Source of the DNA: Euglena gracilis
Taxonomy: Eukaryota
Direction of reading: 5' to 3'
DNA: 64,000 bases
Assembly (NCBI GenBank): GCA_039621445.1
Contig: CP154954.1
Coordinates: forward strand, 17,576,589 to 17,640,588
The notes under the pieces were generated by a model. The model did not search any database, was not told where the DNA came from, and saw only the letters and a program-made list of their open reading frames with translations. Positions within the stretch are counted from its first letter, which is position 1. Every line of letters starts with the position of its first letter. The translations under genes were made by a program, and so were the position numbers. Below, one piece after another: positions 13,501-62,600 of this stretch.

Positions 13501-16500
13501 GTATTATTTTTTGGACGTTTTTGTTCCGGAAAAAACCCAAAACATGGCCAAAAATGGGCATCATTGGGAAGTTTTGGTGGATCAAGAGGTTTTTCGGCGC
13601 TTCGAGTTTGCTGGCAGACCCCCCCCGGGGTCCACTAAGATTTCCACCCCCCCCCCTGCTATTGACCCCCCCCCCGGTTATCGACCCCTGGGTGTGGGGC
13701 CCAAATGCTACCCCCCCCCCAAAGTTGACCCTCTCCCCCGTTGGGCCCAACCTCACCCCCCCTGGAAAATTTTTTTCCAGATTTAAGACGCAGTCTGAGG
13801 AATGGTTTCCCCACAGAAAATGTCTTCTTCATCTGACGAAGTGGTTGGGGAGCGTCGAACATACGCATCTCCCAAGGTGCTGTCCAATGGTGATGGGGTG
13901 TCTCGAGAATTCATTCATTCTTGTGGCATGTGAGCCCATGTATGGGGAAAATGACTCGACCCAACTTGACCCGGGTCAATAACATGGGGGGGGGGTGTCA
14001 AATTTGGACTGGCTGCAATCCTCGAGCAGAAAGCTGCAATCCTCAGCAACAATGAGCTCAAACGCTGACATGTTTCTGTCCGAATCCAAACGCGCAGGAA
14101 AACAACACACTTCAACAAGAGGGTTGGCACGAGACTTCAAAGAGCACACCACAATGCATTCAGGGTACTTTGACACACTGGCCAGCTCGTTGATGCTCAG
14201 GGCGGACGTGTTGGTGGCAAAAATAGTCTTGCCATCCAGTGGCAGGGCACCTCAGCGCGACATAGGGCATTCCTGTGCTTGCCCCACCCAAAGGTGCATG
14301 AATGAAACCACAAGAGGTCCCCACAGTTGGTGGCACTTGGGCAGACATTATTTGGGCGGAACCCACCCAACCAGTCCACCGCCAAGGGCGTAATTTTGGA
14401 TTCAAAGAATTCTTTTTGGCACGTCGCTCGGAAAAAAAGAGGCGGTTTGCGGGGATGCAAACTGGCTCTGCCTTTGCGAGGGAGCCCCCCCCTAAACAGA
14501 GGTTTTTTTCAGGACCAGAGGGAGGTATGGTTTGGCACCTGCTGAGGGGGGGGGGGGCTTGGGGACTTTGGGGATCAATTTTGGCAATCAATTTTCGACA
14601 TTTTGCCCCTACCAAAAACGGAGAATGCCCCCTTTGTGGGTGTGGGACCCCCCCCTGCACCTTCGAAATGGTAAAAGGCCGGGAAAATCTTCCGTTCTGT
14701 GTCAAAAGGCCGAAATCCAGGCCAAAACTGTTGGAAAAGGAAATAATTACAAAAATGACCATTCTTTTCGCATTTTTGGTGATTTTTTTCCCACGCGGAA
14801 AACACCAAAACATCCAAAAATGTGCAGAATGCTTGGAAATGAGAAAAAATCACCAATCTCTTTACCAAAAAAAAAAAATGTCTTGGAGAAAGGAAAAAAA
14901 ATCCTCCATGAAAATAATAGAAATATTGGCCATGATACGTGGCTTTGTTTCATTAATGGGGTACCATGTCCAGGATCCCTGCAGCCTCCAGCTCCTGCAC
15001 CATCTTCTTCTTGATATCCATGATCTCCACTGCGGCCTCAATGATGACGGCGCAGCCCTTGAGGTCTGACAGGGGAATCAATTGCATTGGGGAACCCCCA
15101 ACACAAGATAACTTTTAAACAAAACAAAGGGGATTCCAGAACAACCCTGGGCTTCCCCCTGTCCTTGTCAACTATGCACTTGGCAACTATTAAATGCTTG
15201 GTTTCCCCCAATCCCGTCAGTCCGGGTCATGCTTGTGCTCACCAACTGGGGGGGGGGGGAGGGGGTGCAAAAGGGTGCCTGCCCCCAGCAGGCACACCCC
15301 GCCGGGGGGTAGGGGTCCGGGGGGGGGACCCAGAAAATTTTCATTGAAAATGGCCGTTTCTGGGGTCAGAGTGGGGGTGCCTGCTTTGGGCAAGCACCCC
15401 CAAAAACCCTACCCCCCCTGGGGGGGGAGTCGGATCGGGTACTATGGGGTGCCTGCCCCTAGCACCCCCTCCCCCCGGGGGTAGGCACCCAACTTAGTGC
15501 AAACCTGGACCGGGTCACAGCCTGCTTGGAAACTAAATGGGCGACTGGCGGGGGACAAACCTTCATTGTTCAGCGTGCCCTTGACGCGGGCAACGGAAGC
15601 TTTGTGGGCCTCGGCGTCCAACTTCTTGGACTTCAGTTGCGAGTCAAACTGCCTGGCGGAAAATGGTGTGTGGAATAGGGTTTGGGGGTACAGCTCAAAA
15701 ATTCGATAGACCTGCCGAACAAAACAATCCTGAGGCAATAAAAAAGATCTGGGGCAGGAATGCCAGATGGTGGGGGTGTTCCTGCGAATCCCCCGGTCTT
15801 GAGCCACCCCTGTCCATCTAATCTTCCAAATGAAAAGCAACAAATCCTTGCCCTTTTTTGCATTGAACTCCATATCGGAGATACTTTTAAAGAAAGAAAA
15901 AACATTAAATACTTGTGAACATCAATTTTACTCTTTGTTTTTAAAAAAAACCATACGAAGAGCAGTCATTGCACTCCCATCAGTTTCCTCTTTCAACTGA
16001 CAAACTGACAACACACACACACACACACACACACACACACACACACACACCCCTGAACAAACTTCAAACCCTTTTGCACCGCCTCGTCATTGATGTCCTT
16101 CATCACGCAGTTGATCTTGCTCTTGGCAGCCCAATGTGCAATCCCGGAGCCCATCACCCCAGCTCCCAACACAGCAATCCTTTTGGCATCCACGGCCTGT
16201 GAAAATCATTTGAATAGAAAACAAAAGATTTGTTAAGAAAGGCAGAATGCCATTCTGATATTACATCTTTGCAAAAACATCTTTACAAAAAATTGTAAAA
16301 ATTTTTTTATGAATGGTGCTTCCGTTTCTAATTTCCCCTTTGTTCATTTGTCAATTGTTTTAGTTTCAAGTACAGCTTTGATTGTTTTTGAAATGGAAAA
16401 AAAAGTGATGACTTGATGAGATGTGTGAGGGGCATACGTCTTGAGAGGAGAAATGAGCCTCCTGTGTGTCCATCTTTTTGCACCGCTCTTGCAGGAAAAA

Positions 16501-59648: not shown

Positions 59649-62600
59649 GGGCAGGGCTGAACGGCATTTCTTGTGGTGGTGGTGGGGACCCTAGAGGAAG
59701 GGGGGTTCCGACCCCCACCTCCCGGGTGACAAATGCACACAAAACATTAGGTTGTGCTGTTGTGAACGGCGAAAGCACAAAATGCAAATGGCGATGCCAT
59801 TCTGAGTGCGCAATTTTGCTTTTGTGAGGATCACATGATCCATTGTTTTTTTTTTTTGGGTGGGGAGGCAATTTGCAAACTGATTTTTTTCCAGAGATAG
59901 GGGGGGGGGGGCGACCCCCAGCTGGCCCTCCCGTGCAGCCCTGGCAACGGGTCACTCTGGATGCACATCTTCGTTGCGCAGCAGGGGACGGAGTTGGCCG
60001 CCGCGGATGAGAAGAGGATCATCCATCCAGGCATTTCTCGGGTACCAAGGGTATTTCTTTCAATTCATTATTCCCATTCTACCTTCTGATGGAGGTATGT
60101 CGGCTTGGCTTTGCTTGAGAGAAAATGAAAAATTCTGCCATTTCACATAGGAAATTTGGTTTGTTTTATTGCCCCTCGAAAAATTGTTTTCACACAAGTG
60201 ATGCAAATTAGCTTTTTACAACAAAATCATGCGTCCCAAATTTTTCCTATTGGCCCTGGAATCGTATGCGAACAAAATTATTTTCTCACAGATCCTTCTT
60301 GGCTCCACATAATTTTCAAAAGCGAACTTTTGAATTGGACCACAATGATGACTCAAAATTGATCACATTTCTTCCCGGAATGGAACGAATAAAGAATCTG
60401 CTAAGAACAGACGAAAAACCCATATATTGCAAAAATTGCGCCCCGTTTTTTTTTTGCCTTTGTGGGGGGGTAAACCTGAACAAATTTTTCTTGTTCCTTT
60501 TTTTGCATGTTCGGAATCGCTGTGAAATGTTGTGTCTTTAATGGGGCACAAAAATACGTCTGAAAGAGGCTTGTTGACTGTTATTTGAAGGGAGGGGGAG
60601 GTGGGGGGTCCAGGGGGGGGGAGGCACAGGCTCCGGCCACCTCCACGTACACAGACAAAAGGGCCAGAGGCGAACAACAGCGCCAGGCCAGAAGAAGGGA
60701 TAAAAGGCACCAAAAAACAGCCACAGTGCACACAGGGGGGGAGGCGCAGCTCCCCTCCCCTCTCTCCAGGCGCATCCAAAAACTCATCCACTTTGCCATC
60801 TCCCTTGGAAGCACCCCCATGTGTGTGTGGGGGGGAATTTGCTAGTGGAGGCGCCAATTTTTTGCAACAACTCAACCATTCTGCAGAACTTTTCATTAAT
60901 TCTGTAAAACCGTCGAAAATTTCATTTTGACGCGTTTTGAATTAAAGAAGATGTGTATTTGAACCCACTTTAACATGTCCCTCTGTGATATGTGTGTGCC
61001 TAACACACAAAAAACTCTCTCAGGTTTTGTTTAATTTTCCCCCCAAGAATAAATTGTGCGGTTTCCATTGAAAATGGTCAATACGGCATTTTATGAGAAC
61101 CATCAAAACAACGGCAATGTGATCCTTATTTGTCACCCCTTTGGGCTCCGCAGACCTCCTTGGTGACAAGGTGGGTTGTCAGTAACCCACCCCCAAACGG
61201 CCTCTTTTTTCCTGGCGCCTTCAGCGCGCTAGGAAAGAATCTTCTGTGTGCATTTGGTTTCATTAGCACCCACCCCCTAATCGTCAGGGAAAACGATAAG
61301 GGGGGGGGAGTCACACACTCTCCTCTTGCAAAATACACCATTTGCCTGAAATTAGCCAGAGATTTGTGTGGTTCCTCAAAACGGCTTCTTCTGTTTTGTG
61401 AATGCAATTCTTTTTGAGAACCACTTCTGTCAAAAAGGGGTTCTCCCCATCAGGAAAGATAGCCTGTCTACACGCTGTGCACCCGTTGGTGAAGTTTTTG
61501 CCCAAACAGGAGTGTTCCCGAACCCTTTGCTTCCGCTTGCCACCAGCCCTCCATCTCCCACACCCAATCACCATAAGCACTGGTTCTCCCCAGTCTGGGC
61601 CACCTGGTGGTTGGGTTGGGGAATTTTTCTGGTGTCCTACTTCGCACTTTTCAGCAATTTTTTTTTTGCAAATGACTTTTTGTTTGCACTCCAATCCTTG
61701 TTGAAAGAAGTGACATTTCCTGTTTTGTGTTTTTTTCATTCCTGGCAGATAGATGCCCCTTTGGCAGATGACTTTTTGGGGTTTTCCCCTGCTGGTGGCT
61801 CGTTTTTGGCGATGTTTCGCGGCCCGAGCATGAGTTCAAACACATGCAAACCCCCTAAAAAGACACCGGCACTCTCGAAGCATGCCCCTTTTCGAAGCAC
61901 CCCCTTTGTGGAAATCTGGACCCCCATTTTTTTTGTTGTGTTTTCCTGCATGGGCATCTGGACCACAAGACAGGGATTAGGGAAGATAATCCATGGGCTT
62001 GAGAGGCGTGAAAGAAGGGCAGAGGTCAGAGGTGTTTGCAGAGTGACAGAGTGACTGAGTGCTGGATGACTCGGCTTCGTCACTCGCAAAGCACTCAAGT
62101 GAGTTCCAGGTCTCTATTTTCCATGTTCCCTTGCATGGTGGAAAATAAAGGTCTTTGCTTCATGTACTCACACCTCAGTCAAAACAAGAACACCTCCTTT
62201 TTGTTTTCTTTTTTTCATTGTTGCCCACGTGCTGCGTGCTTTGTTTTGAACTTTTTTGTCCTCACTGCGGTGCCTCAAGACGGATCCTGCCGGCAGACAG
62301 AATTTGCACACAGCGTCATGTCCGCAAAAATCAGGGGTTATATTGCAGGGCCAGTGAGGGGTGGGGTGCCGGTAAATCTAAAAAGTGAGGTGCCTGAAAT
62401 TTGAAACATGCTGCTGAACTGTTGAGAATGTCAGCCATGCCACTCTCTTTGACAATTTCCACTTTCCTGAAGTGCTTTTCAATGGCGATGTGTCTGGCAA
62501 AGGGCAAGTGCTTGAAATCCCCGCATCCCCATCCCCGTATTCCACATCGGGAACCATTTTCTGAGTTGTTTCCCTTCGAAGAAATACAGGCACAATTAAA

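Follow-up and report, generated by a model that had tools for sequence, protein, structure and literature searches.

Transposon-like elements with 8-bp target site duplications are probably spliced from exons as nonconventional introns in a 64-kb stretch of the Euglena gracilis genome

Where do the nonconventional (NC) introns of euglenids come from, and why are they cut at fixed distances from a pair of short motifs? The question is raised by a window of 64,000 nucleotides from Euglena gracilis (the whole stretch of DNA analysed; assembly GCA_039621445.1, contig CP154954.1, positions 17,576,589 to 17,640,588 of the forward strand). It consists of repeat-rich eukaryotic DNA of balanced GC content with zero N, and two genes could be defined in it, gene A for a multifunctional enoyl-CoA hydratase/3-hydroxyacyl-CoA dehydrogenase and gene B for a protein of the CLPTM1 family. 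Both genes contain introns that lack GT-AG ends and coincide with MITEs (miniature inverted-repeat transposable elements); elements of this kind, flanked by 8-bp target site duplications (TSDs), are also found outside exons. Since the 1990s the origin of NC introns has been described as mysterious, and papers up to 2025 still state that it 'remains unclear', as does the accessible text of PMC12501133 while reporting 71.8% NC introns for E. agilis. The reading proposed here, to which we assign a probability of about 0.75, is that exonic MITEs of Euglena ending in CAG and CTG are spliced as NC introns, the element being removed together with one copy of its TSD.

Much of the framework is already published. 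Passages of PMC3935182 give the positions of CAG and CTG in NC introns together with the hypothesis of a MITE origin, and parts of PMC11282704 use the wording 'TIR' (terminal inverted repeat) and 'TSD-like' for these introns and describe their removal, in euglenids, as circles and after the conventional introns. That this circular excision does not depend on the spliceosome is likewise known from the literature (PMC11282704 and the Discussion of PMC12501133). The code 5'-N3CDG-/-CH'GN5-6|R, with strict 3-nt and preferred 5-nt spacers, was given by Nomura et al. 2025 (PMC12501133); the sections of that paper available to us also report that natural and synthetic NC introns are portable into an EgGSL2 exon by knock-in, and the idea of transposon tolerance is voiced in its Discussion. 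A strain-specific new NC intron in the gapC gene of E. agilis, with direct repeats of eight nucleotides from which its authors infer double-strand-break repair, is described in PMC4770533, where, as far as the accessible text goes, both junctions are reported to have the form Y|R, along with A at position 2 of the downstream exon in 43/55 and C at position 3 in 30/55 NC introns. The novelty that the preliminary description of this locus had left open is accordingly divided: the N3-CAG/CTG-N5 code, the portability and the tolerance idea were in print, while the naming of concrete families of elements, and the connection of splice geometry to the length of the TSD, appear to be new. In the literature text that was searched, figures and supplements lying outside the search, no statement was found that connects NC introns with hAT transposons, a named element family, a TSD of 8 bp or 3 + 5 as the length of a TSD.

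The evidence that carries the proposed reading comes from the third mapped intron of gene B (B3, Table 1). RNA was compared with window positions 44001-64000, using raw RNA reads of two separate studies chosen by species label (X6 and X10), a contig run (X1) and a run of DNA contigs (X5). A skip of 300 nt at 59646-59951 was observed in X6, X10 and X1 and nowhere in the X5 DNA. This length is exactly that of the 292-bp element lying there plus 8, in agreement with the preliminary description, according to which splicing would take out an element and one copy of its 8-nt repeat. The flanks of the element, GTAACGGG/GCAACGGG, match at 7/8 positions. The joint slides over six letters (a shared AACGGG), and the placement 59649-59948, with CAG and CTG at the positions of the code, lies inside this sliding range. 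Removal of the left copy together with the element is ruled out at B3, since the RNA retains the T of the left copy. The X5 DNA contigs span both borders of the element and never present the joined form. Retention of the element would create an in-frame stop in B3, as it would in the gene A introns A5 and A13.

The same RNA data verified all five mapped introns of gene B. Their joints are present in X6, X10 and X1, a single X1 contig (depth 209) containing all five, and in 0 contigs of X5, and the X10 reads lie all on one strand, which is consistent with plus-strand RNA for this gene. Splicing the window at the five joints produces an open frame of 189 residues, 188 of which are identical to the N-terminus of protein P0122 (eukprot EG_transcript_7062, carrying PF05602), and a 56-residue exon is 100% identical to it; this agreement is a check of gene B splicing that is independent of the reads. 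The source label of P0122 and the intron biology together point to Euglena as the origin of the DNA. Within the sliding range of each joint, introns were placed by CAG at +4..+6 and CTG at -8..-6. All five are gone from the RNA and their borders are not GT/GC-AG, no GT-AG placement existing for B1-B5 within these ranges. A placement of the form N3-CAG...CTG-N5, in which N3 and N5 stand for three and five nucleotides, is possible in four of them (B1-B4) and is unique in B1, B2 and B4.

Gene A was mapped by protein-guided junction enumeration and by tblastn with P0002 (eukprot GGOE01013664.1.p1) and P0003, both transcript-derived euglenid proteins. It begins with a Met at 33463 and runs off the window start, the homologous enzyme having 775 residues; away from the junctions its exons are 85-100% identical to P0002 per tblastn alignment and not identical overall. 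Twenty introns were mapped: 16 GT-AG introns (intron 12 being counted as such by visual reading of the sequences), two of the CAG/CTG type (A5 and A13) and two noncanonical ones around a mini-exon. Removal of 405 nt at A5 gives 30/30 residues identical to P0002 across the TPRLIG/LQNAL junction; nine equivalent placements exist for this intron because its duplication is perfect, and it is the cleanest such structure in the window. Removal of 734 nt at A13 gives a junction peptide that is contiguous in both P0002 and P0003. RNA supports the core of the interpretation for B3, and homology does so for A5.

Three introns of the two genes (B3, A5 and A13) had been described beforehand as lacking GT-AG ends and as having the form N3-CAG (or CAT)...CTG-N5, and all three were recovered. 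N5 and N3 together had been described as one copy of an 8-bp repeat; the flanks match at 8/8 positions in A5, 7/8 in B3 and 5/8 in A13. With B1, B2 and B4, six introns of this type are present in the window. CAG at +4..+6 and CTG at -8..-6, with 3- and 5-nt spacers, are found in B1-B4 and A5, A13 having CAT/CTG. In 6/6 the intron length equals the CAG..CTG span plus 8, and in 6/6 the downstream exon starts with a purine (G or A). Their 8-nt flanks match at 30/48 positions (p=4e-8), and those of the four degenerate introns, B3 and A5 being left aside, at 15/32 (p=0.006), which fits older insertions with decayed duplications. Pairing between the intron ends ranged from -12.7 to -30.4 kcal/mol in the six CAG/CTG introns (-15.8 kcal/mol in A13), against -0.7 to -16.6 kcal/mol in 15 GT-AG introns.

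The removal rule is tied to a mobile element by a single MITE family with exonic copies, B3 being RNA-verified, and a non-exonic copy. A terminus of 15-16 nt, CAGGGCWGNACGGGA, is common to B3, A5 and the element e31365, and 12 matches to this motif were counted in the window, against 5.1 expected. Terminal identity to e31365 is 13/16 at both ends of B3 and 12/16 and 13/16 at those of A5, 13/16 being reached by 23/619 CAGG 16-mer controls, and a subterminal motif GGCCTGG-TGGGGG...TCGACCCC is present on five of the six ends of the three elements. The relationship is limited to some 40-70 terminal bases, no internal similarity among B3, A5 and e31365 having been found by blastn. Unrelated interiors are usual among MITEs with a common transposase. 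The termini of B1, B2, B4 and A13 match those of the TSD-flanked families at 8-11/16 positions only, a value of 11 being reached by 138/619 controls; judged by their ends, only two of the six CAG/CTG introns (B3 and A5) are recognisable family members.

Elements of this CAGGGC family are asymmetric, one end continuing with GGCCTGG-TGGGGG..TCGACCCC and the other with TTNTTGTG. The GGCCTGG-type end lies at the 3' side of the intron in both B3 and A5, which are oriented the same way relative to transcription, and the intronic e31365 is reversed; with n=3, this orientation pattern may be chance. A metagenome scan with the 16-nt TIR returned at least 119 loci, and among the 80 listed each had a single match and no inverted pair; these loci were rejected as elements and taken as chance 16-mer matches.

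The non-exonic elements with CA..TG termini and 8-bp TSDs, which the preliminary description had reported to be numerous, proved to be real. Among 841 CA..TG pairs (TIR of at least 10/12, non-simple ends), 12 displayed flank identities of at least 7/8, whereas slid-flank controls (n=40) averaged 1.02 such pairs and never exceeded 7. Flank repeats with at most one mismatch next to CA-start TIR pairs were most frequent at a length of 8 (6 pairs), with 2 pairs for a length of 7 and 1 for a length of 9. Every flanked copy has a duplication sequence of its own, and in the gene A region all copies except A5 are located inside conventional introns.

Table 1. Genes, introns, RNA joints and transposon-like elements of the window (position 1 is its first letter; "flanks" and "TSD" give matching positions out of 8)
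Feature	Position	Strand	Description
Gene B, first six exons	57200..63624	+	CLPTM1 family, PF05602; 5' limit approximate; continues past window end
Gene B exon limits	..57344, 58075-58151, 59480-59648, 59949-60024, 61472-61505, 63494-63624	+	
B1 joint	57342->58073		730 nt skipped; 21 reads in X6, 28 in X10
B2 joint	58149->59478		1328 nt skipped; 14 reads in X6, 22 in X10
B3 joint	59645->59946		300 nt skipped; 18 reads in X6, 18 in X10
B4 joint	60023->61471		1447 nt skipped; 6 reads in X6, 6 in X10
B5 joint	61505->63494		1988 nt skipped; 10 reads in X6, 5 in X10
Intron B1	57345..58074	+	AGG-CAGGTCCC...GGAACCTG-CTGGA; TIR 10/12; flanks 2/8; end pairing -24.9 kcal/mol
Intron B2	58152..59479	+	AGT-CAGGCTGG...CGCTCTG-CCGTC; TIR 7/12; flanks 5/8
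Intron B3	59649..59948	+	N3 (GGG) + element + N5 (GCAAC); RNA joint, CAG/CTG placement
B3 MITE	59652..59943	.	292 bp, CAGGGCWGNACGGGA family; ends CAGGGCTGAACGG...CCCGTGCAGCCCTG; TIR 11/12
Intron B4	60025..61471	+	ATC-CAGGCATT...ATAGCCTG-TCTAC; TIR 7/12; flanks 3/8
Intron B5	61506..63493	+	RNA-verified; not GT-AG or CAG/CTG at any of 6 placements
Gene A	1342..33463	-	Multifunctional enzyme; at least 21 exons in window; tblastn P0002/P0003, Pfam 3HCDH
Intron A5	23843..24247	-	N3 (GGC) + element + N5 (GATCG); protein-guided mapping
A5 MITE	23848..24244	.	397 bp, CAGGGCWGNACGGGA family; TSD GCCCGATC (plus strand), 8/8
Intron A13	14238..14971	-	GGA-CATGGTACC...GGTGCCCTG-CCACT (CATGG...CCCTG); flanks ATCCTGGA/CCACTGGA 5/8
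MITE e31365	31365..31986	.	Perfect 16-nt TIR CAGGGCAGAACGGGAA; TSD ATCAGGGG 8/8; in conventional intron A2
MITE CAGGGGTTTT...	2305..2565	.	TSD GTGGGGAT 8/8; non-exonic (intron A19); related to 24597-25325
MITE	24597-25325	.	TSD GCCCAAAC 8/8; in intron A4
MITE CAGGCTTGTGCTTAAG	29867..30316	.	TSD 7/8; non-exonic (intron A2); terminal type as 7435-8415
MITE	7435-8415	.	TSD 7/8; holds nested 7840-8151
CATAG...CTATG element	11930..12181	.	TSD TCCTCGCT 8/8; conventional intron A15
CAT-type element	22765-23106	.	TSD 8/8; in intron A6
CAT-type element	34679-35059	.	TSD 7/8
Element CAAGCACCTCTGGTGA...	52402..54367	.	1966 bp; TSD CCCGTGCC 8/8; internal tandem repeats
Element	5048-6139	.	Ends similar to 52402-54367; TSD 7/8

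A group of elements ending in CATAG...CTATG (11930-12181, 34679-35059, 24695-25122 and 47777-49743) has 8-bp duplications matching at 6-8/8 positions. These ends misfit the published code; the two placeable copies are in conventional introns and none lies on a mapped exon. Within the 1966-bp element, heavy RNA coverage was observed over 31 nt (53663-53693), the reads passing into unrelated sequence to the left and right of it (in X6, with 62 and 61 loose ends) and nearly all displaying A>G at 53682 in 66/67 reads of X6 and 25/25 of X10; this coverage probably stems from an abundant transcript of another locus sharing the piece.

The duplications themselves point to a target-site preference. 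In 13 element duplications of the window, C is found at position 3 in 10/13 and a purine at position 6 in 13/13, and the latter matches the published purine at the downstream exon start of NC introns. Both cuts would fall at position 5|6 of the two copies of one 8-bp duplication, giving Y|R at both borders, and the target preference, being roughly palindromic, would bring a purine to position 6 of the transcript whichever way the gene is oriented. The NC junction consensus may in part be the target-site preference of a transposon.

To which superfamily would such a transposon belong? Transposons of the hAT superfamily have an 8-bp TSD, YARNG termini (Ac being an example) and the target consensus nTnnnnAn. 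The present assignment to hAT is based on the 8-bp TSD and the CAGGG ends and is not established. The YARNG consensus is fitted by the CAGGG and CAGGC families and not by the CATAG and CAAGC families, and nTnnnnAn is weak in the 13 duplications (T at position 2 in 7/13, A at position 7 in 4/13; 11/26 together, p=0.04). No transposase domain, those for BED and hAT dimerisation included, was found in the 150 longest open reading frames (ORFs) of the window; Pfam scans of 10, 10 and 150 window ORFs returned 3HCDH only, plus one weak KRTAP match and two insignificant matches.

These observations feed the alternative that survives best, according to which the introns would be spliced DNA transposons of another superfamily with 8-bp TSDs, their CAGGG ends reflecting a convergent requirement of the splicing code. 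The C3 and R6 preference, the weak hAT target consensus, the lack of a hAT domain among the ORFs scanned and the presence of CATAG- and CAAGC-ended elements with 8-bp TSDs all agree with it. However, an 8-bp TSD combined with CAGGG termini fits the hAT end, and the A that prevails at the second downstream-exon base of published NC introns (PMC4770533, in its accessible text) falls on TSD position 7, the A of nTnnnnAn. Membership of another superfamily is held to be unlikely, though it keeps more weight than any of the explanations that follow.

A narrower objection concerns A5, the insertion of which (23848-24244) might be a recent null allele or belong to a silent paralog, and be left unspliced, only older and selection-shaped elements being real introns. 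It draws on the incomplete identity between P0002 and the exons and on a search of transcript-derived proteins across the A5 junction, in which none was 100% identical, the best match being P0002 with 98%. Yet the mapped exons of gene A are all open and conserved, A5 displays N3, N5, the CAG/CTG pair and an exon start with a purine, and B3, from the same family and with a 7/8 TSD, is demonstrably spliced. An unspliced A5 is for these reasons judged improbable.

Still less probable is the explanation of Milanowski et al. 2016, in which the direct repeats at intron borders are scars of double-strand-break repair accompanying intron gain and the elements are only transposon-like. The 8-nt repeat of the new gapC intron is so read in the text of PMC4770533, and no transposase was found among the 150 longest ORFs. 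The same termini are found, however, at unrelated sites in conventional introns with differing 8-bp repeats, in excess over the controls and with a peak at length 8, and integration by staggered cuts is marked by this combination of conserved inverted termini and a duplication of fixed length (8 bp), whereas the length of a repair microhomology would vary. Hardly credible, finally, is a spread at the RNA level, in which excised circular NC introns would reverse-splice and be copied back to DNA so that the 'MITEs' would be dispersed introns: NC introns do leave as circles, according to parts of PMC11282704 and of the Discussion of PMC12501133, and most non-exonic copies were found inside the transcribed gene A, but reverse splicing would transfer the old N3 and N5 without target duplication, whereas each copy has its own 8-bp duplication and e31365, judged by its asymmetric subterminal motif, is antisense with respect to the transcription of gene A when compared with the two exonic copies.

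Several points weigh against splicing of exonic MITEs as a general account of these introns. The cut at B3 is ambiguous over 6 nt, so that the 3 + 5 offsets come from the literature code and not from this intron. For A5 and A13 the evidence of splicing comes from protein homology, and A5 might represent a null insertion of very recent date. The 5' motif of A13 is CAT and not CAG, a misfit to the published CDG requirement. Because the flanks of B1 (2/8) and B4 (3/8) are not above chance and their termini match no TSD-flanked family above control level, a transposon origin of these two would be an extrapolation. As no transposase was found among the 150 longest ORFs, transposition at the DNA level, like hAT membership, is something we infer from the structure of the elements. 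The effect also differs from gene to gene, 16/20 introns of gene A being GT-AG. Nor do all introns devoid of GT-AG ends follow the code. B5, a stretch of single-copy DNA with weak end pairing (-5.3 kcal/mol), is a third class of intron that fits no rule, and introns 18a and 18b, around the mini-exon at 7005-6982, appear noncanonical with CAG and CTG missing at the expected offsets.

This mini-exon (~6982-7005, minus strand) encodes GQMLLQGA, 8/8 identical to P0002, and is flanked by long introns (~10096-7006 and 6981-4975); the exon upstream of it could also extend, with SEAAANLL, as far as a GT donor, a hint that an alternative form exists. Elsewhere in gene A, a TIR pair at ~15061-16830 was rejected as an intron, gene A exons lying inside it, and the intron at this site is, by eye, GT-AG if E replaces A in NNADLK. 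A protein predicted from a public assembly contig (P0001, 190 residues) shows 94% identity to the translation read through conventional intron A14 (at 13979-14251, minus strand); the contig may thus derive from a transcript left unspliced or from the DNA of a close relative. Inside intron A9, a 19-nt unit resembling CATGATGGCCATCATGACC is repeated in tandem at 17853-18032. Downstream of the gene B exon ending at 63624, the RNA goes on with a sequence coding for DFNFYRPAYL that is absent from the window, and the intron at this place starts with TGCCCCTTCCCTG, lacking both a GT start and a CAG at +4. Long CA-rich simple repeats (ACACAC-type) occupy the window end (63700-64000).

The mechanism that would account for the introns of CAG/CTG type can be outlined as follows. 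The window would be Euglena nuclear DNA with many non-autonomous DNA transposons (MITEs) with CAG...CTG inverted repeats and 8-bp TSDs, transposed at the DNA level by an enzyme making 8-bp staggered cuts. Once an element is inserted in an exon, its RNA would form a terminal stem, and the NC-intron machinery would cut 3 nt before CAG and 5 nt after CTG, following the rule of Nomura et al. 2025. Since the ends of the stem are the ends of the transposon and 3 + 5 is the length of the duplication, the excised piece would be the element with exactly one duplication copy, and the mRNA would regain its pre-insertion sequence. Splicing competence would be acquired with the insertion itself, and the match 3 + 5 = 8 might have arisen because the host adapted or because only certain transposons are able to persist in exons. 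B3 and A5 would be young copies of the CAGGGCWGNACGGGA family, and B1, B2, B4 and A13 look like older copies that keep the CAG/CTG core and the stem, with decayed flank identity.

A broader proposal, that most euglenid NC introns descend from one class of CAG/CTG-ended transposons with 8-bp TSDs, introns from insertion on, is put forward tentatively, at somewhat less than even odds. If it is true, NC splicing would be an undoing of integration at the RNA level, the 3- and 5-nt offsets having come to match the 8-bp stagger by such adaptation or filtering. The mRNA would keep one restored target site, the excised circle would consist of the element with one intact TSD, and the junction rules (Y|R at either border, with A at position 2 and C at position 3 of the downstream exon) would be a target-site preference seen twice. 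The ~72% NC introns of E. agilis would be accounted for, and families misfitting by their ends or their TSD length, such as CATAG...CTATG, would be kept out of exons. Should the process be genome-wide, the large NC-intron load of Euglena would be explained and new exonic insertions would be harmless at the RNA level. The conserved 16-nt termini would then provide a handle for finding both the autonomous transposase and the splicing enzyme.

Compared with known systems, the elements resemble hAT MITEs by their 8-bp TSD and their termini starting with CAGGG, and differ from them in that no transposase was found among the window ORFs scanned and in the weakness of nTnnnnAn. Introners of Micromonas and Aureococcus are also TIR- and TSD-bearing non-autonomous transposons born as introns, with the TSD taking part in the splice geometry and the mRNA being restored. 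However, according to the available parts of PMC11282704, they depend on the spliceosome, take one splice dinucleotide from the element or the TSD and have, in M. pusilla, a 3-nt TSD, whereas the cuts considered here lie 3 and 5 nt from an RNA stem, the TSD is 8 bp long and the borders are not GT-AG, the GT/GC-AG sites of introners having no counterpart in B1-B5. The MITE introns of Fritillaria borealis and Amoebophrya, likewise mass-acquired, with TIRs, TSDs and non-GT-AG ends, are removed by a modified spliceosome, unlike euglenid NC introns, which leave as circles after the conventional introns (PMC11282704, same parts). The closest likeness is to the euglenid NC introns of PMC12501133 and of Milanowski et al. 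2014 and 2016, whose non-GT-AG borders, CAG/CTG offsets, stem and downstream purine, as given in the accessible text, are those of B1-B4 and A5, with CAT in A13. The removal rule itself was already known genetically, and published accounts leave the origin of these introns open ('MITE-like ... may be their source'). In the present window two of them would be copies of a family to which the TSD-flanked element e31365 also belongs, which gives the long-standing hypothesis of a MITE origin direct, testable support.

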